Assembly (NCBI GenBank): GCA_965261345.1
Contig: OZ253449.1
Coordinates: forward strand, 2,307,784 to 2,371,783
Length of the DNA: 64,000 nt
Reading direction: 5' to 3'
DNA from: Chloroflexota bacterium
GTDB taxonomy: Bacteria > Chloroflexota > UBA11872 > VXNJ01
A program made the position numbers and the translations under genes. Shown in pieces: positions 7,340 through 64,000 of this stretch (position 1 is its first letter; every line of letters begins with the position of its first letter). Under the pieces are notes generated by a model that saw only the letters and a program-made list of their open reading frames with translations, did no database searches and was not told the origin of the DNA.

Positions 7340-8254
7340 CTCGAACACACTCAGTCATTGGCCGGCAGCACATCGTTTAACGTGCAATTGCGTGCCGTCA
7401 ACGCTGTCGGACCCGGGCCCTGGTCGGGTTCAATCACCGCCACAACCGGTGCCCGTGGTGGTGGTGGAGGTGGAGGTGGTGGCCGGCGTCCGCCTGAACC
7501 GGTCCTCCCGTCGATCGAATACACCCTCAAGGTGCTAGATAACCGCTTCGAGAAAGCACCGGGCAACCTCGACCTCCAACACAACATCCCCGACCTGGAG
7601 GTAACCCTCCCCAACGGGGAGGTGGTAACGGCCGATTTCCTGGGTCACTTCCTGGAAACTGGTGAGCTAACCCGCTGGGGCTATCCCACCTCTGAGGTCC
7701 TGGTACTAGAGGATGGGACCCTGACCCAGTTCTACCAGCGCGGGGTGGTGGACTTCCACAACCTTGGATCCGGCTGGGTGGTGGAACGCCGCCTGGCCTG
7801 GGACTACGTCGGCGGTGGCGCCGGCGGATCGCCCGACCAGGGCGTAGAACCCGGAGTTACCAATCCCCACCCGGGCACCCTCCTGGGTCCCTGGGGCCAC
7901 AAGGTCTCTGACTTTGCCATCGATGGAACCCAGATCGGCTTTGCCGGCTTCTTTAATTCCCTGGGCGGAGTTGGCGCCTTCGGTTTGCCCAAGACCGATG
8001 CCCGGGAGGATACCGGAGACCTGGGCACCTTAAGGGAACCAGACAAGACCCTGGGCTTTATCCGGCAGTACTTCCAGGCGGCAATCTTCCAGTTCAATGC
8101 GGCCGGTGCCATCGAAATTACCCTGCTGGGCGATACCCTGCGCGGCGTTCTGGTGCCCAACTTTGCCGAGCATCCCCCATTTACCAGGGCAGAGCAACTG
8201 GTACGGGTGCAGGCATTTAAGCCCTACGCAATCCCGCAACTGGCCGACGCCTGA
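7340..8254 (+). pseudogene. 3' portion of the S8-FN3 protein: the end of FN3 repeat 14, a Gly9 linker, and a C-terminal domain with LGFP-like (putative cell-wall-binding) repeats.
   Basis: The sequence reads LEHTQSLAGSTSFNVQLRAVNAVGPGPWS, then GGGGGGGGG (7457-7483), then repeats such as RWGYPTSEVLVLEDGTLTQFYQRGVV and FGLPKTDARED..FIRQYFQAAIFQF. The LGFP assignment is by eye only. Confidence 0.7.
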
Positions 8255-8502: not shown

Positions 8503-8700
8503 TCAACCCCTACCGGATGCGATCACCAGGCTTGATACCCGGTGGTGGGCAATGGCCAGCTCGTAGAAATTTTTCACCTGGTGCTTGTGGGCAGGATTTG
8601 TGCGTTTATCTATCAGACGCCACATGGTGTTGCGCCGTTTTCCAACCCGCCCAATCATCGCGACCCGTGCGGCGCGGAATACAGCGACGATCCCCATGTA
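8503..8700 (-). pseudogene. Possible C-terminal remnant of an IS5-family (IS427-like) transposase.
   Basis: GKRRNTMWRLIDKRTNPAHKHQVKNFYELAIAHHRVSSLV resembles the family C-terminus (Y.QRN.IERFFNKLK.FRRIATRYDK.A.NF.A.V.LA). No upstream catalytic region is present. Confidence 0.3.
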
Positions 8701-8934
8701 CCGGCAATTTGGCGGGCCGGCAGTCAAGCTTTGGTTTGCGCCAACAAATTCAATCTGAAAACAGGTCCTCCGCGGACCGGCGGGGGGACTGAGAAAGCAT
8801 TGTTCACGGTCACTTAAAGGTTTTTTTCCGTCACCAAGGGCCCACCGGCGAATGAGGCGGGTTCGCACGTTTTCTGACGGTATTCGCAATTGGCCTCATT
8901 TGGTAACCCCGGGGCGGATCAATGAGTCGAATCG

Positions 8935-9716: not shown

Positions 9717-10190
9717 ATGGCAATCACACTAAAAGCGGGCGATGCAGCTCCGGATTTCGAGCTCACCGATCAGGACGGAAATCTGCATTCGCTTGGCAAA
9801 TACTGGGGAAGCACGGTCGTCCTCTACTTTTACCCCCGCGACGACACACCAGGTTGCACGACGCAGGCCTGTTCATTCCGAGATGCGCATGATGAAATCG
9901 CCGCTGAGGATGCGGTCGTGCTTGGAGTCTCCGTCGACGACGCGGATTCGCACCAGCGCTTCCGTGAGAGCCATGGACTCCCATTCCCGCTGCTAGTCGA
10001 CGAAGAGGCGATGGTCGCCAAAAGGTACGGCTCCTGGGGTGAGAAAGTACTTTACGGTCGTCGGTTCGTGGGAATGACGCGTTCAACTTTCATAATCGGC
10101 CCCGATGGTCGACTGACCAAGGTGTGGAAACGGGCCCGCGCGGCAGAGCACGGCGAAGCGGTGCTCAAGGCCATCCGCGCGTCCGCTTAA
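9717..10190 (+). CDS. bcp: Thioredoxin-dependent peroxiredoxin Bcp.
   Basis: AGDAAPDFELTDQDG..VVLYFYPRDDTPGCTTQACSFRD contains the peroxidatic Cys motif PxxxTxxC. The 157-aa length is typical. Confidence 0.9.
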   Translation: MAITLKAGDAAPDFELTDQDGNLHSLGKYWGSTVVLYFYPRDDTPGCTTQACSFRDAHDEIAAEDAVVLGVSVDDADSHQRFRESHGLPFPLLVDEEAMVAKRYGSWGEKVLYGRRFVGMTRSTFIIGPDGRLTKVWKRARAAEHGEAVLKAIRASA

Positions 10191-10405
10191 TTGGAGGGGC
10201 AACTCGGCTCCACGAACGTTCAATAGGCACAAACGGCCGTACGCTGCGGACCGCGCGCCGCCGCCCACCATCCAGTGATCGTTATTGGCGATAGTTCCGT
10301 CTAAGAGTTTGCCGATGGAGCAAGAAGCCGTTTTGACTACGAAATGTTGTTCGCGGACATTGAGAAGTGCCCGCCGGCGGACATGTATCTCTGCACATAG
10401 GTGGC

Positions 10406-10437
10406 CAACAAACTGCCCATGCGTGGGCAGTTTGTTG
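10406..10437. repeat. Perfect 14-bp-stem / 4-nt-loop palindrome inside the istB-distal end of the IS21 element.
   Basis: caacaaactgccca tgcg tgggcagtttgttg. Each arm matches the GGGCAGTTT motif found near the other IS end. It could be a transposase-binding repeat pair or a terminator. Confidence 0.6.
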
Positions 10438-10867
10438 AAGGCGCCGCGACCGGCCTGATTTCTCTAATTGGACGCCCTGCCGCAGGCTGATCCGAACACC
10501 TCCTCTCCGGCGGCGGCGTCAGTTGTTCCTACCCCGATTTTGGCCAAAGCTGCCCGCCACAAACCGGTTTGCGCCAAGGGTCCGGGGTCACAACCGCCCG
10601 TCAGAACCGCTGTATGGGCCTCCTGGCGGCCATGCTTTTTGCAGATGTTGTCTATATCGACTGAATTGGGGGCCGCATGGCGTCAATCGGCCCGCAGCGG
10701 CGGGGGCGCTTTTCCCGCATTCGATTTCCGGGCGGGCAGGTTGAGGCGGCCTGCCGTGGCGCAGACCGTCCAATTTGCCCGCATGCACGGCAGCGGCCCG
10801 GATCCGGTATTGGACGGGGCCGCTGCAATCGTTACCGCGACGAGCATTTCATCACTTCGGGCAAGGG

Positions 10868-52322: not shown

Positions 52323-53908
<1,586 letters not shown>

Positions 53909-53924: not shown

Positions 53925-55027
53925 TATCTGGGGGACTTCCACGTCGGTGTGTTCGATCACCTCCGCCCTGGCGCCGGCGTAGCTGGGGCGCTGCTTTGAG
54001 GGCAGGAGCTGAATGCCCTGCCACTTGTACCTGACGGTGTTATCACGGGCGACCCGGCGGGAGTGTCTAAAGCAGAGCACTCCGTCAAGGTCGATGTCGG
54101 GATCTGGGTGGCGGAAGACGTTCTGCGGTTGGGCTGGTGCCACCGCGAACTGCTGGTTGAAGCGCTCTACGAACCGGGAGAGCAGGTAATTGGCGGCGGC
54201 AATGCTCCTTGCCCCATCCAGGCGCAGCTTAAGTCACCAGGCGATCCTGGAAGGTTCCGCAGGCACGTTCGACTCTCCCTTTTGCCTGTGGTGAGCTGGC
54301 AAATATCAGCCGTATCCCCAGCTGCCCCATCGCCCGCGCGAATTGGGTCGCGCCCTCGGCCTTTGCCGGTTCGGCAGAGCGCAACGAGGGCACGAATACG
54401 CTGTGACGATCACTGTAGAGCGCCAACGGGATGCCGTGATCTCTGATCAGGTCGCTTAGCAACTCAAAGTAGCCGCAGGCATCCTCATCGGGCCAGAAAG
54501 CGCGCCGCCAACACCTTGCCGGTGGCATCATCTATGGCCAGGTGCAGGGTAAACAGGGGAAAGTCATCACCCAGCCAGCGGTGATGGCTGCCGTCAATCT
54601 GGACCAGCATCCCTTCGGAGGGCATACGCTCCCTTCTTACCCGGTGGCGGGGCGGGCGCCGGCGCCGCGGGCTTCTGATTCCGGCCGCCGCCAGGATCCG
54701 GCGAAGGGTCTGCCGACCGATCTCGATTCCCTCCCTCTCGCAGAGCAGCTGGGCTAGGTGGGTGTGATTTACATCCTGGTAACGGGTCTGGGCCAGTGCG
54801 ATCACCCTGGCGGCGACATCCGGTGGAGTTGCGTTCCCCGGCCGGCGGCCGCGGTTGCCGTGACTTAAGGCTTGCTCGCCGCGGCTGCGGTAAGCGGCCA
54901 GCAATCGATAGAACTGGCGGCCGCTGAGGCCGAGCAGGGTCGCCGCCTGCTGGGAATCGATCTGCCTGGCAAGGAAGCAATCAAGGATTTGCCGGCGTGC
55001 TGGCGGGAACTGCTCGACCAATGTCAT
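53925..55027 (-). pseudogene. ISNCY-family-like DDE (rve) transposase, split over three frames.
   Basis: HTH (QQAATLLGLSGRQFYRLL..LSHGNRGRRPGN), MLVQIDGSHHRWLGD..TLHLAIDDATGKV (frame a), GYFELL..GIPLALYSDRHSVF..TQFARAMGQLGIRLIFASSPQAKGRVERACGTFQDRLV (frame b), and VFRHPDPDIDLDGVLCFRHSRRVARDNTVRY (frame c). Confidence 0.6.
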
Positions 55028-55300: not shown

Positions 55301-56242
55301 ATGGCTTCGTTTCCAGACAAATGCCCGCTTTGGGGACCTGAATTCTCTGCACGGGTTTCAGCGCGTAGTAGACAAGGTCGAATCGATGTTGAATCGCCCC
55401 GAACAGGGGGGTGCTTCTGCTCAGACAAGGATGTGTTAAGCAATTTGCATGAGTTGAGCAAACGAGAAAAAGCAAAACTAACGACTTGGCTCATCGAAAG
55501 GAGGAGGCAAGGAGAAGATTGGCCGCGGATTACTCAAGATGTAATCGACGCGGTGGCGCGAACAAACCCGTTGCCTGTTTACACCCGGGCTGATCGTTTG
55601 CTGCAGCATTTGAGCGAAATTACTACCGAATTTGGAATGCCATTGTCGGCACCGTTTAAACCGTACGTGGCCCATGCGATCTCAGAGTCAACTAGTGATC
55701 GCGAAGTTGGATTTCTTCGCGATTTTCTCGCCGATCGCGGCTGGATATTGGACAAACCTGGTTGGTCGGGCATGGATACAGCGCTTAAAGTCGACGGCTT
55801 GGCTCGGGTGGAACAATTGACCGTCAACGCAGATTCTCCCCAGGCGTTTGTAGCAATGTGGATAGATTCGTCATTGGACAGCGCATATGTCGATGGATTC
55901 AAGCCCGCAATTGAGGATTGCGGTTACGTGGCGATGAGGATTGACCAAAAGCCCGATGTCGACAAATTAGACGATGAAATCATCGCTGAGATACGGCGTT
56001 CGCGATTTGTCGTGGCTGATTTGTCTCAAGACAATAAAGGCGCGCGCGGAAGCGTTTATTTTGAAGCCGGGTTCGCAATGGGAACGGGTTTACCAGTTAT
56101 CTTTACTTGTCATAAAGAATGGGACGACGATTTTCATTTTGACATTCGACAGTACGCGCACATTGTGTGGGACTCGTCGGACAATCTCCGAAAATCGTTA
56201 AGTGCCCGAATCTCGGCACGACCGCGATGGGCCCGGTATTGA
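55301..56242 (+). CDS. Orphan protein with a C-terminal nucleoside-2-deoxyribosyltransferase-like / TIR-like Rossmannoid domain.
   Basis: The C-terminal ~130 aa read QAFVAMWIDSSLDSAYVDGFKPAIEDCGYVAMRID..DDEIIAEIRRSRFVVADLSQDN..SVYFEAGFAMGTGLPVIFTC..FHFDIRQY. I recognised nothing in the N-terminal ~170 aa (possibly a Cys-containing/wHTH region). Confidence 0.45.
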   Translation: MASFPDKCPLWGPEFSARVSARSRQGRIDVESPRTGGCFCSDKDVLSNLHELSKREKAKLTTWLIERRRQGEDWPRITQDVIDAVARTNPLPVYTRADRLLQHLSEITTEFGMPLSAPFKPYVAHAISESTSDREVGFLRDFLADRGWILDKPGWSGMDTALKVDGLARVEQLTVNADSPQAFVAMWIDSSLDSAYVDGFKPAIEDCGYVAMRIDQKPDVDKLDDEIIAEIRRSRFVVADLSQDNKGARGSVYFEAGFAMGTGLPVIFTCHKEWDDDFHFDIRQYAHIVWDSSDNLRKSLSARISARPRWARY

Positions 56243-57551: not shown

Positions 57552-58148
57552 GTGCAAATATCAACCATTGCCGATATTAAGCCAGGATTGTCAACGTCTG
57601 GAAGGGCGGCAGGCAGCCGCCGTGGCGACTGGGAGCTCCGCATCGTAGAAAGCGCCGACATAGTTGAGGACTGTTTGCAACTCAGCGGGCTCCGCAAAAT
57701 AATGGTCGTGCGCAGCACGCGGGCCGAAAAGCACCTCCTTAAGCCATTTGACTTGCTCGTAACTGCACGCTCCCCGGCGGTAAAGGTCGCATTGGTCCCG
57801 CCTGGCGTAACTCGGACTGTCGCGTCATCGACTTTGCTCGTCCTGCGCACTCCTGACCCGGGTTCCGGATTGGCGCACTTCCTCTGGTTCTACCTCTCAT
57901 CGACGCACGGTCGGGCTCAGATAGCGGCCAGATTCACGAAAACATTTTTGCCGGCGCTATCGGCGAAAGCGCTCGGTGAATTGAGAATTCGGTTGCCTGG
58001 GCTCATTGAACTTCAACGCTTGGCCGACCTGATTGATGCGGCCGAAATCTCGCGCATTACAGCAATTGAGGCCGCGCGCATCAGACATGGCGTGATTCGC
58101 GATGCTGTCATCGGCGCGATCACGGCGCCGGCCTATGAAAGGTGTTAA
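57552..58148 (+). CDS. hsdS: Half-size type I restriction specificity subunit (a single TRD plus one conserved helix).
   Basis: 198 aa with a GTG start. ..IADIKPG.., FDLLVTARSP.VKVALV, SSTLLVLR..FLWFYLSS..G, and LGELRIRLPGLIELQRLADLIDAAE match the Methylase_S layout. Its stop at 58146-58148 lies 2 nt before the hsdM ATG. Confidence 0.6.
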   Translation: MQISTIADIKPGLSTSGRAAGSRRGDWELRIVESADIVEDCLQLSGLRKIMVVRSTRAEKHLLKPFDLLVTARSPAVKVALVPPGVTRTVASSTLLVLRTPDPGSGLAHFLWFYLSSTHGRAQIAARFTKTFLPALSAKALGELRIRLPGLIELQRLADLIDAAEISRITAIEAARIRHGVIRDAVIGAITAPAYERC

Positions 58149-58150
58149 CC

Positions 58151-59683
58151 ATGCCGCTTGAAAACAAGGAATTGGAATCAAAACTCTGGGGAGCCGCCGA
58201 CATCCTCAGAGGCCAGATCGACTCCAGCGACTACAAAAACTACATCTTCTCGATGCTTTTCTTAAAGCGGCTTAGCGACCGCTTCACCGAGGAGGTCGAG
58301 CGTGCCGTCGCCGACGGCCAGCCCCGTCAAGTGGCCTTGCTCGACCCCGATGAGCACGAGTTCTACGTTCCACCCGAAGCCCGTTGGAGTGAGATCGTCA
58401 GTCAGGCGATGAACCTCGGCGAGGTCGTCAACCGAGCCAGCGCCGAAATCGAGGAAGCCAACGCACCCCGGCTCGACGGCGTCCTGCGTAACACGAACTG
58501 GAATGACGAGTCCAAACTCGGCAACCCTATCAGTCGCGACCGAATAATCAGTAGACTACTGCGGCATTTCGATGCCCTTGACTTGAGCGACGCGAACCTG
58601 ACAAGTGAGGGTGCCCACGGCGCCGTCAACGTATTGGGCGATGCCTATGAGTACCTAATTAACAAATTTGCCGATGATGCCGGCAAGAAGGGCGGCGAGT
58701 TTTACACTCCCCGATCGGTAGTTGGTTTGATCGTGGAACTGCTGGAACCAACCGAAGGCATGCGCATATGCGATCCCACCGCCGGGTCTGCGGGCATGCT
58801 TATTTACGCAGCTCAGTACGTCGCCAAGCAAGGCGGCAATTCGCGGAATCTGGTGCTGCACGGTCAAGAACGCAACCTCGGAACGCTCGCCATCGGCAAG
58901 CTGAACCTGTTGTTGCACAGTCTGCGCTCCGCCCGTTTCGAGGGCGGTGATGTCATCTTGGACCCGCAGTTACGGGACCAGGACGGTCGCCTGTTTTCCT
59001 ATGACCGCGTCATCGCCAATCCGCCCTTCAGCCTAAAGGAGTGGGGGCGCGATTTTGCCCCCAACGACCCCCATCACCGTTTCGACCGTTTCGGCGCGAT
59101 TCCGCCGAAAACCAGGGGAGACCTCGCATTCCTCCAGCACATGCTCGCTGTTACCAACGCGGATGGGATGGTAGGAGTGGTGATGCCGCACGGCATCCTC
59201 TTTAGAGTTGGTACAGAGGGCACGATCCGCAAGGGCATCGTCCAGGCCGACCTGTTTGAGGCAGTCATCGGGTTAGCGCCCAATCTTTTCTATGGCGCCA
59301 GCATCCCTGTCGCCGTCTGCATCCTCAACAAAAGCAAACCCCCCGAGCGGCGTGGGAAGGTCCTATTCATCGACGCTGCTCAACCAGATTACTTCCGCTC
59401 GGGCAAGGCGCAGAACCACCTTGATCAGGCACACGTGGCGAGCATCGTCGAGGCGTTTCGCACCTTTAAAGAAATCGAGCGCTTTGCGCATGTGGCGGAC
59501 CTCGCGGAGATCGCCGCCAACGACCACAACCTGAACATCAGTCGCTATGTCGACACCACCGAGCCGGTCGAGGTCATAAGCGTCAAGGACGCACTGGCGC
59601 AGCTCCGCGAGGCGGAGCGGAAGCGTGACGAGGCGGCTGCCCACATGGACGAGTTGCTTGCGGAGCTGGGCTATGGCCGGTAG
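58151..59683 (+). CDS. hsdM: Type I restriction-modification system methyltransferase subunit HsdM.
   Basis: N-terminal HsdM_N (LWGAADILRGQIDSSDYKNYIFSMLFLKRLSD), SAM motif CDPTAGSAGML, and catalytic VIANPPFSLKEW. Confidence 0.95.
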   Translation: MPLENKELESKLWGAADILRGQIDSSDYKNYIFSMLFLKRLSDRFTEEVERAVADGQPRQVALLDPDEHEFYVPPEARWSEIVSQAMNLGEVVNRASAEIEEANAPRLDGVLRNTNWNDESKLGNPISRDRIISRLLRHFDALDLSDANLTSEGAHGAVNVLGDAYEYLINKFADDAGKKGGEFYTPRSVVGLIVELLEPTEGMRICDPTAGSAGMLIYAAQYVAKQGGNSRNLVLHGQERNLGTLAIGKLNLLLHSLRSARFEGGDVILDPQLRDQDGRLFSYDRVIANPPFSLKEWGRDFAPNDPHHRFDRFGAIPPKTRGDLAFLQHMLAVTNADGMVGVVMPHGILFRVGTEGTIRKGIVQADLFEAVIGLAPNLFYGASIPVAVCILNKSKPPERRGKVLFIDAAQPDYFRSGKAQNHLDQAHVASIVEAFRTFKEIERFAHVADLAEIAANDHNLNISRYVDTTEPVEVISVKDALAQLREAERKRDEAAAHMDELLAELGYGR

Positions 59684-60142
59684 CGAGGGCATGGCCCTCC
59701 CCGCCGGTTGGGAAATCGTACGTTTGGGGGATGTGGCAGAGGTGGTGATGGGTCAGTCTCCGCCAGGGGAAGCAGTACTTGATTGGGACGGTGAATCTAC
59801 CGAGGATGATGGGCTACCGTTTATTCAGGGCAATGCTGAATTTGGAAGTAAATCTCCCCAACCGCTGAAATGGTGCGTCGATCCATCGAAAGTAGTTGAC
59901 TCCGCCGACTTGTTGATCAGTGTGAGGGCGCCCGTGGGTCAAACAAATCGAGCTGATCAGCTACTCGCCATTGGCCGGGGCCTTGCCGGAATCCGATTCA
60001 CCGGCGCGTATCAACCCTTCGGTTGGCATGTCCTTAACCATGCCAAACGAGATTTTGAACGTGTTGCTCAGGGAAGCACATTCGGGGCGATAGGCGGCAC
60101 GGAACTTCGATCTCTTTCGCTGGCACTTCCACCCCTACCTGA
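59673..60142 (+). pseudogene. hsdS: Full-length hsdS, 5' part (TRD1). It is interrupted by an IS3-family element.
   Basis: The ATG overlaps the hsdM end by 11 nt. The sequence reads LPAGWEIVRLGDVAEVVMGQSPPG.. up to ..ELRSLSLALPPLP, where the IS begins. Confidence 0.85.
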
Positions 60143-60210
60143 TGACGTGGACCCTTCTATTGGTACCAGGACGAATGTGATTAATCTGGTTCCATAAGAA
60201 AGGGACATTC

Positions 60211-60489
60211 ATGGCGAAAAGAAAGTACTCGCCCGAACAGATCATTCACAAGCTCCGCTCGATTGAGCTGGTTGTCGCGCAAGGCAAGACCGTGTTCGAG
60301 GCCTGCCGCGAGGTGGGCATCAACCCCCAGACCTATTACCGCTGGCGCTCCCGCTACGGCGGCATGACCATCAGCGAAGCCAAGGAGAACAAGCGCCTGC
60401 GCGAGGAGAACACCCGCCTCAAGCAGGCCGTGGCCGATCTGACTCTGGACGTACAGATCTTGAAAGAGGCGGCCTCGGGAAATTGGTAA
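60211..60489 (+). CDS. IS3-family transposase OrfA (HTH / leucine zipper).
   Basis: MAKRKYSPEQII..ACREVGINPQTYYRWRSRY..ENKRLREENTRLKQAVADLTLDVQILKE. Confidence 0.9.
   Translation: MAKRKYSPEQIIHKLRSIELVVAQGKTVFEACREVGINPQTYYRWRSRYGGMTISEAKENKRLREENTRLKQAVADLTLDVQILKEAASGNW
60477..60483 (+). promoter_or_regulatory. Candidate -1 programmed-frameshift heptamer G_GGA_AAT at the orfA/orfB overlap.
   Basis: orfB is in the -1 frame relative to orfA. The X_XXY_YYZ pattern sits in the orfA zero frame (tcg gga aat tgg taa), 4 nt before the orfA stop codon. It is not the classical A_AAA_AAG. Confidence 0.3.
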
Positions 60490-61337
60490 GCCCGGAGCGC
60501 CGACGTCGATGCGTCAAGCACATTCGGGCTAAATACAAAACATCAGAAAGAAGAACCTGTCAGGTATTGGGGCAGCCGCGGCGGACCCAGCGCTATGTGC
60601 CCAGACCCGATCCCGAAAACGACAATCTCACCGCCGAGATAAAGACCCTCTCCCTGCGTCATCCACGCTACGGCTACAAGCGCATCACCGCGCTGCTTAA
60701 GAGCTCAGGCTGGAATGTCAACCGCAAGCGGGTGCTGCGCATCTGGCGCCGGGAGGGCCTTAAGATCCCCGTTCGGCAGATCAAGCGCTCCCGCCTCTGG
60801 CTGGATGGGGAGCGCAGCATCCGACTGCGGTCCCTTCATCGCAACCACGTCTGGGCTTATGACTTCGCCTATGCGAGAACCGACGATGGCCGACCACTGC
60901 GGATCTTAGTCGTCGTTGATGAATTCACGCGCGAGGCGCTCTCGCTAACGGTCAACCGCACCTTCACTTCCAGGGACGTCATCGGGGTCATCTCAGGCCT
61001 CATGCTCACCCATGGCATCCCTGGTCACATCCGCTCTGACAACGGACCCGAATTCACCGCCAGGGCAATAAGGAACTGGTTATCGCAGAACGCAATTAAG
61101 ACCTCCTACATCAAGCCGGGGGCGCCCTGGGAGAATGGCTATGCTGAGAGCTTCATCGGCAAGCTCCGCGACGAGCTGCTGGACCGGGAGATATTTTTCA
61201 ATCTGGCCGAAGCCAAGGTGCTAATGGATGGCTATCGGCGGGAATACAATACCGTCCGGCCGCACAGCGCCCTTAGCTACCGGCCGCCAATTCAACCGAT
61301 CTTAAGATCGGTTGAAACCCAAGCAAATGTCGCATGA
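60483..61337 (+). CDS. IS3-family transposase OrfB (DDE integrase core).
   Basis: HVWAYDFAYARTDDGRPLRILVVVDEFTREAL..IRSDNGPEFTA..PGAPWENGYAESFIGKLRDELL..YNTVRPHSALSYRPP. Confidence 0.9.
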   Translation: MVSPERRRRCVKHIRAKYKTSERRTCQVLGQPRRTQRYVPRPDPENDNLTAEIKTLSLRHPRYGYKRITALLKSSGWNVNRKRVLRIWRREGLKIPVRQIKRSRLWLDGERSIRLRSLHRNHVWAYDFAYARTDDGRPLRILVVVDEFTREALSLTVNRTFTSRDVIGVISGLMLTHGIPGHIRSDNGPEFTARAIRNWLSQNAIKTSYIKPGAPWENGYAESFIGKLRDELLDREIFFNLAEAKVLMDGYRREYNTVRPHSALSYRPPIQPILRSVETQANVA

Positions 61338-61366
61338 AGCTTGGTACCAAGAATGGGTACCCGTCA

Positions 61367-62157
61367 CTGAGCAACGCGCTATCGCTTCCGTGCTTGACTC
61401 CATCGACAAGGCCATCGAGTGCACTGAGGATGTCATCGCCGCAACTGAGCGGCTGCGCGAGTCCCTGCTCCACGAGTTGCTCGCGCGTGGCCTCCCTGGT
61501 TGGCGCACAGAATGGCGCGAGGTTCCGGGGTTTGGGCCCGTCCCTGACGGCTGGAAGGTCGTACGGTTGGGAGATGTCGCAGAAGTTGTAGGAGGCGGAA
61601 CGCCATCTCGGGCCAAGTTTGAGTACTGGGGTGGTGATACACCGTGGGTTGTACCATCGGAAATCACGGCATTGTCTGGACGTTATTTGTCTACAACGCG
61701 TGAGTCAATTTCGGTATATGGGTCTAGGGCCGCTCGCCTACGAATGATTCCCGCCGGCTCAGTCCTCCTTACCAGCAGGGCGACTATTGGCGCAACGGCG
61801 ATCAACACGGTTCCTGTTGCCACCAATCAGGGTTTTCAGAGTCTGATTCCTGGCGATAAGATTTCCGGACTATGGCTCTATTACGTCGCAACCTCCTTGA
61901 AACGGGAGTTGGAAAAAAGGGCCGCGGGGAGCACATTTCGTGAGGTTTCTCGTGAGAGCGTCCGCTCAATTCGCATCGCCCTTCCATCGCGAGTTGAACA
62001 GAAGGCAATTGCGGCGGTGTTGGGTAGCGTGGACGCCACGATCGAAGAAGCGCAGGAGAAATTAAGAAAGCTGAATTTGTTAAAAATTTCGGCGGCCGAA
62101 TCGCTCTTAGCAGGGCGGATTCGGTGCAGTATCAAGGACAAAATTGGACAACAATAA
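61367..62157 (+). pseudogene. hsdS: Full-length hsdS, 3' part (central conserved region, TRD2, C-terminal conserved region).
   Basis: EQRAIASVLDSIDKAIE..LLHELLARG..WKVVRLGDVAEVVGGGTPSR..PWVVPSEI..TNQGFQSL..IRIALPSRVEQKAIAAVLGSVDATIEE. The frame matches the 5' part once the IS is removed. Confidence 0.85.
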
Positions 62158-63076
62158 AACGATTGAAATTCGCGCAAGCGATTTGCCAATTGCCCTGTAT
62201 CTGAATCAACGGGTGACCTTTGACCTGCTCGCCGTCATGGAGGGTGGTTTCGCGCGCGTGACGACAGTTCAGGAATCGTCGTCACGCGCAAAGCACTCCG
62301 GTGTCGAAGGGAGCGTTGGGCTCGGCACTAGCAATCCATTCGCCTTTCTCGGGTTCACATTCGGGGCACAGGGACACCGTGACACGGCGACCGCTTCTGG
62401 CGGTGTGACAACCGAGGAACTTGTTCACACTCCAACATCATTGTTCGCCAGACTTCGCCAGGAACTGATGCGCAGGGGTCTTGTCAGGACAATTGAAAAT
62501 GAGAGCGCTGACTTTGATACAGTCGCGCCTGGGGAATTTGTCGAGTTTCGAGCGGTATTACGCCGGTCGCCGTTAGTCGATGTTCTCGATACGTTTCAGC
62601 AGTTCGTCCCGATGATGGCCGTTTTCGACGGCGCTAAAGATTCGCCGCGAAAAGGCGGCCGGAAACAGCGGGGCGATAGGAGGAAAAATCTAGATCGAAC
62701 CGCACAGATGCTCCAGCAGATCGCGGCAATTCGCGACGCTGTTTCCGCGGATGGGTCCCAGGACCTTATTGCGGAGTGTGGCGTGAATCGATTTGTCTTG
62801 GCTACGGAAGAGGCATTCTTCGTCGATCCATCAATGAACGATGTCATTGATGGCACCTTCCGAGTATTCGGAAAAATCACGCGGGTTGTGCCTAAAAATG
62901 CCCCTGAGGGGATAAGCCTTTTCCGCAAGTCCGCTATCGGCAACTTTGGAGGCATTGTTTCGGAGTTGGGCTCGTCCCTCGCCTCGCTCGGAGACGTAGG
63001 TTTCACTGGTCAGAAAGTCGAGACGCAGATACCTGCACCGACCCTCCAGGTGATCCCGATCGGAATCTTCGCCTAA
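62144..63076 (+). CDS. Hypothetical 310-aa protein embedded between hsdS and hsdR. No domain recognised.
   Basis: The ATG overlaps the hsdS end by 14 nt, and the stop lies 5 nt before the proposed hsdR start. The sequence begins ..LYLNQRVTFDLLAVMEGGFARV.., has a basic low-complexity centre GAKDSPRKGGRKQRGDRRKNLDR, and ends ..LQVIPIGIFA. I saw no P-loop, HEPN Rx4-6H or PD-(D/E)XK motif. Confidence 0.5.
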   Translation: MDNNKTIEIRASDLPIALYLNQRVTFDLLAVMEGGFARVTTVQESSSRAKHSGVEGSVGLGTSNPFAFLGFTFGAQGHRDTATASGGVTTEELVHTPTSLFARLRQELMRRGLVRTIENESADFDTVAPGEFVEFRAVLRRSPLVDVLDTFQQFVPMMAVFDGAKDSPRKGGRKQRGDRRKNLDRTAQMLQQIAAIRDAVSADGSQDLIAECGVNRFVLATEEAFFVDPSMNDVIDGTFRVFGKITRVVPKNAPEGISLFRKSAIGNFGGIVSELGSSLASLGDVGFTGQKVETQIPAPTLQVIPIGIFA

Positions 63077-63081
63077 CCCCC

Positions 63082-64000
63082 TTGACCTCCCCAGCCAAGC
63101 TCAACGAGCTCACCCTCGCTGAAAAACCCGCGCGCCAGTTGTTGGAGCGCCTCGGTTGGACCTACATAGACCGCGAGACGCTGGCGGCGGAGCGCGACGA
63201 CGAACGAAACGTGTTCCTCTACGAGCGGTTGACGTCTGCGCTCATGCGCCTCAACGAGTGGATGACCAAGGACCAGGCGCAGCGCGTCATCTTCAATCTC
63301 CAGCACTTGAATGGAATTGGGCTCGCGCGCAACCAGGCCATCCACACCTATCTCTCTCACGGCATGCCGCTCACTGTCGACCGTGGCGGCCGGCAGGAGA
63401 CGCCCACCGTTCGGTTCTTCGATTTCGACCACCCGGAACCGGGAGTCGGACTCAATGAATACGTGGTTACCACGCAGTTCCGTGTGCGGCGCAGCACCGA
63501 GCGCGGCGCCCCGCGAACCAGCGAGGACGACTCCCGCGTCGTCAAGCCAGACATTGTGCTGTTCGTGAACGGCATCCCCCTCGTGGTGCTGGAGGCGAAG
63601 TCACCTACGCTGTTTGACGTGTGGAAACAACAAGCCGTCAAGCAGTTGCACCGCTACCAGGAGGCCGAATCGGAATGGCACGGCACCGGCGCCCCCGAGC
63701 TTTTTGAGACGAACCTCATGTGCGTCGCACTCTGCGGCGCCGATGCTGCATTCGGCTCCCTCGGCGCGCCCGAGAACACCTACGCCGGCTGGAAGTCGAT
63801 CGACCCGTTCACGGAGATGGAATTCGAGCGTCGCTTCGGCACACCACCCCAGGGCCAGGCGCGGCTCATCACGGGGCTGCTAAATCCGACGACGCTCCTC
63901 GATATCCTGCGTGACTTTGTTATCTTCGAGCACGAGCGCGGGCGGCTGGTGAAGAAGCTGCCCCGCTACCAGCAGTACCGCGCGGTTCGCCACGCCCTCG
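63082..64000 (+). CDS. hsdR: Type I restriction enzyme endonuclease/translocase subunit HsdR (N-terminal part; continues off-window).
   Basis: An open frame with no stop to the window end. AEKPARQLLERLGWTYID.., the nuclease motif KPDIVLFVNGIPLVVLEAKS (D..EAK), and ..AVKQLHRYQ... The TTG start at 63082 is tentative. Confidence 0.85.
   Translation, partial: MTSPAKLNELTLAEKPARQLLERLGWTYIDRETLAAERDDERNVFLYERLTSALMRLNEWMTKDQAQRVIFNLQHLNGIGLARNQAIHTYLSHGMPLTVDRGGRQETPTVRFFDFDHPEPGVGLNEYVVTTQFRVRRSTERGAPRTSEDDSRVVKPDIVLFVNGIPLVVLEAKSPTLFDVWKQQAVKQLHRYQEAESEWHGTGAPELFETNLMCVALCGADAAFGSLGAPENTYAGWKSIDPFTEMEFERRFGTPPQGQARLITGLLNPTTLLDILRDFVIFEHERGRLVKKLPRYQQYRAVRHAL

Follow-up and report, generated by a model that had tools for sequence, protein, structure and literature searches.

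The 64,000-nucleotide stretch analysed here, hereafter the window, derives from contig OZ253449.1 of a Chloroflexota bacterium and contains, at positions 62144–63076 of its forward strand, an open reading frame (ORF) set between the hsdS and hsdR genes of a type I restriction-modification (R-M) operon. The encoded protein is a full-length member of the DUF6414 family and belongs to a branch that resembles DolA, a component of the anti-phage system Dodola, and lacks the second component, DolB. On sequence grounds the gene is plausibly a single-gene phage-defence module. The interpretation favoured here, which is held with moderate confidence, is that it encodes an anti-phage module, of either abortive-infection or sensor-effector type, that is complete in itself, lands at the hsdS-hsdR junction and does not need the Hsd enzyme. 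The new element is the partner-less DolA-like branch and its enrichment in type I R-M operons; the family itself was already known.

The 310-residue product matched the Pfam model PF19952 (DUF6414) with a score of 100 bits (E = 2.6e-28; the curated gathering threshold of the model is 25 bits), and the alignment covered residues 15–309 of the protein and positions 2–283 of the 283-position model. At E ≤ 10, DUF6414 was the sole Pfam family returned for the window protein, with no match to Methylase_S, N6_Mtase/HsdM_N or HSDR_N/ResIII. Scans of the same protein against NCBIfam and, even at E ≤ 10, against PADLOC returned no family, including no DolA, PDC or HEC model. The original prediction had called the gene unrecognisable and had suggested that its product may belong to a different, uncharacterised family. 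The protein is, however, recognisable and its family has a name, as a profile search against Pfam retrieved the known family DUF6414, which is the family of DolA from the validated Dodola system.

Dodola is a verified anti-phage system composed of DolA and the ClpB-like protein DolB (Millman et al. 2022; bioRxiv 10.1101/2022.05.11.491447), and a review likewise describes it as a DUF6414 protein together with a ClpB-like protein. Literature searches on the mechanism of Dodola, or on DUF6414 beyond that one review, returned nothing mechanistic. Two DolA sequences obtained from the supplement of Millman et al., the verified protein of B. cereus FM1 and that of B. thuringiensis, matched the full PF19952 model at 78 and 103 bits, respectively, and a full-model match is therefore common to DolA and the window protein. 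Profile-profile alignment (hhalign) of the window branch with the DolA family was colinear over 186 columns at a probability of 8%, and alignment of the branch profile with a single DolA sequence was likewise colinear and statistically weak. Reciprocal hidden Markov model searches between the two branches gave consistent matches of 10–20 bits. The dedicated PADLOC DolA model produced weak matches in 5 of 91 relatives (best 4e-3), the PADLOC model PDC-M37A did so in 9 of 91 (best 3.9e-5), and a PADLOC scan of five Bacilli members gave no match. Judged from these comparisons, the relationship of the window branch to DolA is real but remote. The component names appear to have been swapped in one source: in PMC11514479, on S. 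thermophilus, DolA denotes a Clp-like hexamer and DolB a two-domain protein, whereas in the original table (bioRxiv 10.1101/2022.05.11.491447) DolA is a 256-residue hypothetical protein, assigned to DUF6414 by Pfam in the present analysis, and DolB is clpB-like.

The two proteins share a colinear architecture consisting of an N-terminal Y-[LF]-[ND]-x motif, a flexible Gly/Ser-rich loop whose core is hydrophobic, a body of alpha/beta type and, at the C-terminus, a hydrophobic strand, and neither carries an enzymatic motif. Members of the window branch are about 290–340 residues long compared with 245–280 residues for DolA proper, and the window protein itself is longer than DolA by approximately 50–60 residues, mainly because its helical hairpin is expanded and a basic linker is present. 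The branch occurs mainly in Chloroflexota and other uncultured lineages, whereas DolA occurs mainly in Firmicutes. About a third of its copies, unlike DolA, are embedded in type I R-M operons. When the DolB sequences of B. cereus FM1 and B. thuringiensis were searched by tblastn against the window and 95 related loci, no adjacent homologue was found beside the window gene or any of the relatives, and just two matches were obtained, both to distant Clp-like genes, at 3 kb and 7 kb. Because both the search for an adjacent DolB and the search with the dedicated DolA model failed, the window locus is not a Dodola system.

ORF 62144–63076 is a genuine gene and not a chance reading frame, because it has a ribosome-binding site, a start supported by the N-termini of its homologues, numerous homologues and a set of invariant positions. 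The gene begins with TTG and ends with a TAA stop codon at 63074–63076; a Shine-Dalgarno-like AAGGA motif, read from the sequence, is located at 62134–62138 (+), 5 nucleotides 5' of the start. The TTG start agrees with the N-termini in an alignment of 48 homologues, and 34 columns are invariant across these 48 sequences, each of which is 42–64% identical to the window protein. A first search recovered 338 homologues at E ≤ 1e-3, and a second, exhaustive search recovered 1,255 clusters (50% identity) at the same threshold, 389 of them at E ≤ 1e-30.

The position of the gene between hsdS and hsdR was borne out by the domain matches on its two sides. Upstream, the hsdS segment at 61367–62157 (+), comprising the second target-recognition domain and the C-terminal conserved region, matched Methylase_S (4.8e-28); downstream, the 5' part of hsdR at 63082–64000 (+), which runs to the end of the window, matched HSDR_N (6.2e-35) and is 62–81% identical to the hsdR of related operons. 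The coupling on both sides that had been claimed for the ORF was likewise confirmed in the sequence. The stop codon of the hsdS frame (TAA, 62155–62157) gives a 14-nucleotide overlap with the DUF6414 gene, and a gap of 5 nucleotides separates the DUF6414 stop codon from the TTG start of hsdR at 63082. An insertion sequence (IS) splits hsdS, so that the stop codon overlapping the DUF6414 gene belongs to no more than a 3' fragment of it, a point overlooked in the original prediction.

Association of the gene with R-M systems was confirmed in the related loci, of which 39 came from species-representative genomes, 52 from metagenomes and one from IMG/VR, supplemented by exact-protein look-ups. Retrieval of the loci relied on two peptide patterns, many of the contigs were short, and the ORF calling was crude. 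The DUF6414 gene lay inside an hsd operon in 12 of the 39 species-dereplicated genome loci and in 14 of the 41 loci flanked by 3 kb or more on each side. Among the five relatives nearest to the window protein (56–62% identical), the four that were looked up all proved to be embedded in an hsd operon. The tabulation of hsdMSR occurrence that had been put forward as a check therefore shows enrichment in R-M loci, and other known or candidate defence genes occur as passengers in the same operons. The first outcome that had been named as refuting the prediction, homologues lacking such enrichment, was thus not seen. By our own estimate, a type I operon makes up well under 1% of a genome. If that estimate holds, the enrichment in type I operons would amount to roughly a hundred-fold. 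The embedded position is specific, being 3' of hsdS, usually with overlapping stop and start codons (by about 8–23 nucleotides in many operons according to the ORF calls, and by 8 nucleotides in the gene tables of looked-up relatives), and 5' of hsdR. The conserved operon in the relatives reads half-hsdS, hsdM, hsdS, DUF6414, hsdR and a YgjP peptidase gene, and the only neighbour families recurring in more than eight loci were HsdM, HsdS, HsdR, half-HsdS and the YgjP-like metallopeptidase.

This is also the position of the classical R-M guard, as prrC sits between hsdS and hsdR of ecoprrI. The window gene would, by the same logic, be a candidate second line of defence, and a guard of different fold might be held silent by HsdM/S/R, freed when Ocr or ArdA blocks the enzyme, and then arrest or kill the cell. 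Such a guard is considered unlikely, though its location is exactly that of prrC and the overlap of its start with the hsdS stop would give co-production with HsdS. Embedding has also occurred repeatedly, in at least five clades; one further copy is convergent to a different type I R-M operon, and two adjoin Eco57I-like R-M genes. However, about two thirds of the copies lie outside any hsd operon, as single-gene insertions, whereas PrrC has been reported almost exclusively embedded in type I R-M systems. In a neighbour-joining tree, constructed without bootstrap support values, the embedded copies were interleaved with solo copies and did not form separate clades; the solo protein of locus L002 and the embedded protein of locus L001 are 57% and 56% identical to the window protein, respectively. 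Other passengers often sit between the DUF6414 gene and hsdR or between the DUF6414 gene and hsdS, and in the window the DUF6414 gene is intact despite the disrupted hsdS.

An autonomous module is favoured over an obligate PrrC-style guard because embedded and solo copies interleave, passengers intervene, and PrrC itself is found almost exclusively embedded. Of the proposal that the gene is a second-line effector in a PrrC-like slot, the slot and the coupling stand; the guard reading is weakened by the majority of non-embedded copies, the interleaved clades and the lack of a recurrent neighbour, none having been found when neighbours other than hsd genes were clustered. The data are compatible with the possibility that embedded copies may act as guards. 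Neighbours of the non-embedded copies include CBASS, CHAT, AbiE, Abi_C, STAND NTPases, a retron-type PRTase, UvrD-S24, PIN pairs, integrases and transposases, and some solo copies lie between housekeeping genes. Among the Bacillaceae copies, in Bacilli-type loci from a Psychrobacillus genome (L038) and from metagenomes (L073, L074, L079 and L081), the DUF6414 gene directly follows the conserved block yycH-yycI-yycJ-htrA-rlmH, and the rlmH/orfX site is a known hot spot of island insertion.

Passengers of the hsd operons comprised HicB/DUF2442 and PIN toxin-antitoxin pairs, DUF4062, AbiJ_NTD4/DUF7014, DUF2971, DUF3800, an OLD-like ATPase-TOPRIM gene and, in one clade, PDC-S54. The latter is a 413-residue gene located between hsdS and the DUF6414 gene (L029 1870–3111, L036 8719–9960, L067 6705–7946, L075 1558–2799 and L083 3319–4608). 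It matched the PADLOC candidate PDC-S54 at approximately 400 bits, has no Pfam match, and carries a C-terminal PD-(D/E)xK-like motif, GKTDICIEF...AECKLWKG. This neighbour was considered as a substitute for DolB and rejected, as it is an independent single-gene candidate with a nuclease-like motif of its own. In most of these operons (L001, L004, L014, L018, L019, L023, L036, L040–L042, L096 and L097), the gene after hsdR, whose codons overlap or abut those of hsdR, encodes a YgjP-like metallopeptidase of 242 residues (PF01863); the window ends inside hsdR. Processing of the DUF6414 protein by this peptidase was also considered and was dropped, as no specific link was found.

The frequent presence of IS elements, integrases and transposases nearby could alternatively indicate a neutral or selfish passenger, either a mobile-element remnant or an addiction-type gene, that accumulates in R-M operons as recombination hot spots. 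The DUF6414 gene itself is disrupted in one related hsd operon (L023), where it is split (8574–8903 and 10001–10642) by an insertion of approximately 1.1 kb that contains a 383-residue ORF on the opposite strand. Its GC content at third codon positions (GC3) is 0.59, equal to that of the hsdS 3' half (0.59; 61367–63076 for the two together) and unlike that of hsdM (0.73; 58142–59683) and hsdR (0.82; 63082–63999). A gene of this kind is nevertheless very improbable, in view of the full-length conservation, the invariant motifs and the 1,255 clusters distributed over bacteria and archaea. No transposase or integrase consistently accompanies the DUF6414 gene. The family is also essentially absent from phage and plasmid collections: a scan of IMG/VR yielded one contig only, and tblastn searches with the window protein against a plasmid collection, and with a Lysinibacillus member against plasmid and phage collections, yielded nothing.

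Within related operons, the DUF6414 proteins are 38–57% identical, compared with 72–85% for HsdM and 62–81% for HsdR, so that its rate of divergence exceeds those of hsdM and hsdR; it remains below that of hsdS. Together, the GC3 values and this divergence would fit either co-exchange with the specificity region or the fast evolution typical of defence genes. The equal GC3 of the DUF6414 gene and the hsdS 3' half suggests that the two may have been acquired or exchanged together.

Pattern searches of the window protein detected no Walker A, HEPN Rx4-6H, HNH, PD-(D/E)xK, GIY or HxH motif which, together with the single Pfam family, agrees with the earlier statement that no P-loop, HEPN or nuclease motif can be read in it. 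Two conserved elements and one variable element were distinguished. The N-terminal motif DLPxxLYLNQRxxFD (residues 13–27; 62180–62224, +) is invariant or nearly so in alignments of both close and diverse family members and aligns with VVYFDExSAxDFL in DolA. Residues 48–85 (62285–62398, +) form a 38-residue flexible loop between two strands that contains the invariant Gly/Phe-rich motif LGxSNxFAxLG (G61, N64 and F66). In both structural models, the predicted local distance difference test (pLDDT) score of this loop is below 50 though its sequence is conserved, and DolA carries an equivalent Gly/Ser-rich loop. It is a larger low-confidence segment than the basic centre and had been overlooked in the earlier description.

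The variable element is the basic centre itself, which was confirmed as a Lys/Arg-rich linker, GAKDSPRKGGRKQRGDRRKNLDR (residues 163–185; 62630–62698, +), at the tip of a predicted hairpin of two long helices (residues 143–164 and 178–200). The linker is 18–36 residues long, and model confidence drops there. The linker has a net charge of +3 or more in 88% of close homologues, compared with 43% of the wider family, and the remainder of the protein is acidic (median net charge of -12). AlphaFold2 with a diverse alignment produced a model with a pLDDT of 82 and a predicted template modelling score of 0.77, showing an alpha/beta protein with approximately nine strands and the long helical hairpin. 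Foldseek gave nothing at E < 0.1 when either of two models was compared with the PDB or when the first was compared with BFVD, and a profile search of PDB sequences also found nothing. The structure prediction and fold search that had been suggested for identifying the protein thus gave a model with no significant PDB fold match. Both models gave weak, non-significant OB-fold-like matches (E ≥ 0.38, probability ≤ 0.3).

Segments resembling transmembrane (TM) helices were found in a minority of relatives. Seven relatives carry conserved N-terminal hydrophobic extensions, two of a 4TM type (P0168 and P0198) and five of a 2TM type (P0155, P0391, P0400, P0405 and P0422, the last being encoded at 8001–9134 of L064/L102). 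The 2TM-type extension opens with a GYLGFLGFLGFLGYL-like glycine-zipper stretch, and one TM-extended relative is encoded amid genes for an SMC-like ATPase, Abi_C and a large methylase. No TM-like segment occurs in the window protein itself, whose best Kyte-Doolittle value over a 19-residue window is 1.14. At the usual threshold of 1.6, the Kyte-Doolittle method gave many marginal matches in the globular domain and is informative for strong N-terminal segments only.

Taken as a self-contained module, the DUF6414 gene would land between hsdS and hsdR in type I R-M operons. There it would share a transcript with the restriction genes, be translationally coupled to them and travel with them, while functioning without the Hsd enzyme. 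The product would be a cytoplasmic domain, acidic and rich in beta structure, in which two elements are mobile: the Gly/Phe-rich loop and the basic-tipped helical hairpin. With low confidence, this domain might sense a phage cue and, equally tentatively, might oligomerise upon sensing. The weakest part of the scheme is that the oligomerised domain might then act on the membrane, with the conserved loop as its working element. Membrane action is proposed because the protein has no enzymatic motif, because it has a mobile loop and hairpin, and because the same domain occurs in rare 2TM and 4TM fusions. It is speculative that the expanded hairpin might take over the role of DolB in the DolB-less branch.

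An alternative of equal weight to membrane action is that the protein might bind nucleic acids by means of an OB-like barrel and the basic arm. Such binding also features in a further explanation, in which the protein has no defence activity of its own and serves the type I enzyme as an accessory or regulatory factor in assembly, restriction alleviation or nucleic-acid binding. The translational coupling on both sides, the weak but repeated OB-fold matches from two independent models, the Lys/Arg-rich linker of the close subfamily and the acidic body of the protein are in keeping with such a factor. It is nonetheless improbable, as hsd genes are absent beside most family members, conservation of the basic linker does not extend to the wider family, and the fold-search matches did not reach significance. 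The sole family member with a tested function is, moreover, a defence protein. To our knowledge, most type I operons also lack such a gene.

Several observations weigh against a self-contained, membrane-acting module. Anti-phage activity has been published only for DolA together with DolB and not for this branch, the direct similarity to DolA is weak, and the PADLOC DolA model misses the window protein. The embedded share of one third is approximate, given the two peptide patterns and short contigs from which it was derived, and several solo copies have housekeeping neighbours alone. With regard to the membrane, the window protein itself is devoid of a TM-like segment, and TM fusions are rare, at approximately 1.5% of the fetched proteins. 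The soluble domain in these fusions could be a sensor only, which would leave the solo forms without an effector. The OB-like matches and the basic linker, as modelled, would fit nucleic-acid binding as well as membrane action.

A more specific form of guard can be envisaged from the same features. In this form, DUF6414 would be a guard of new fold that is produced along with HsdS, docks on the Hsd complex, is released when a phage anti-restriction protein blocks the enzyme, and kills or arrests the cell through the Gly/Phe-rich loop at the membrane. This is regarded as doubtful, somewhat more so than the general guard explanation above. If true, it would represent PrrC-like logic with a non-enzymatic effector, and it would explain Dodola, with DolB taking the releasing role of the R-M complex.

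Compared with known systems, the window protein differs from PrrC in having neither an ABC-type ATPase/P-loop domain nor an anticodon-nuclease domain, and its branch is not confined to R-M operons. The presence of a gene of unknown function inside a type I R-M operon, or guilt-by-embedding, was the criterion used to nominate PDCs (Payne et al. 2024). The window gene resembles the PDC and HEC candidates in being such a gene, and in five related operons the gene immediately 5' of the DUF6414 gene is PDC-S54, but none of the PDC or HEC models matches the window protein. TgvAB, located in a type I R-M system of V. cholerae, shows that embedded genes are able to defend independently of HsdR; the window protein is unrelated to GmrSD-type nucleases. 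Cap15-type effectors of CBASS are 2TM, membrane-anchored beta-barrel proteins. By analogy, the minority of DUF6414 proteins with two or four N-terminal TM helices before a beta-rich soluble domain recalls this arrangement. They differ in that no cyclase or other signal-producing gene is associated with DUF6414, no fold similarity was found, and the window protein has no TM segment.

The existence of a DolB-less branch of the DolA family suggests that the DUF6414 protein is the functional core of Dodola and that DolB is accessory, and a one-gene version would be simpler to study than the two-gene system. The branch is missed by PADLOC and is common in poorly studied phyla (Chloroflexota, archaea and Binatia), and it adds a candidate defence gene where few are annotated. 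Its repeated capture at the hsdS-hsdR junction is a further case of guilt-by-embedding, one that allows a ride-along role to be tested against a guard role, and the TM-fused relatives and the invariant loop provide specific residues and a hypothesis of membrane action.

The remainder of the window operon reads, in order, half-hsdS, hsdM, hsdS with an IS3 insertion, DUF6414 and hsdR, which leaves the window at its end. The first gene (57552–58148, +) encodes a half-size, HsdS-like specificity protein of 198 residues and overlaps the start of hsdM. It has no Pfam match; its best PADLOC Specificity_I match was 1.7e-11, and positions 1–185 of one 208-position PADLOC type I specificity model were matched. 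Homologues occupy the equivalent position in at least nine related operons, giving two specificity genes per operon. The hsdM gene (58142–59683, +) matched HsdM_N (1.7e-26) and N6_Mtase (1.6e-92). The 5' part of hsdS (59673–60142, +), encoding the first target-recognition domain (Methylase_S, 8.4e-09), begins with an ATG at 59673 that overlaps the hsdM stop by 11 nucleotides, an overlap that is identical in locus L096. It is truncated by the IS, and its reading frame continues into the left end of that element.

The insertion is an IS3-family element (60143–61366, +) in the central conserved region of hsdS, with orfA at 60211–60489 and orfB at 60483–61337 (HTH_Tnp_1, rve and rve_3). It is bounded by terminal inverted repeats, TGACGTGGACCC... 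and ...GGGTACCCGTCA, and by a 4-bp CTGA target duplication at 60139–60142 and 61367–61370. Removal of the element in silico brought back the conserved central HsdS motif LPPLPEQRAIASVLDSIDKAIE, and precise excision would restore the reading frame. Because the element splits hsdS, the type I system in this genome is probably inactive or altered.

Upstream of the operon are an IS110-family transposase gene (52323–53669, -) and a fragment with helix-turn-helix transposase domains (54485–55027, -), and these, with the IS3 element, show that mobile elements are abundant in this region. A 313-residue ORF at 55301–56242 (+) carries, towards its C-terminus, a domain of TIR or nucleoside-deoxyribosyltransferase-like type (TIR effector in PADLOC, 6.5e-13; the Pfam matches were weak) and is possibly a second defence gene in the same island. 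A relative of this ORF with 45% identity was found in locus L031 (7150–7545, -), approximately 5 kb from another DUF6414 gene on a Caldilineaceae contig.

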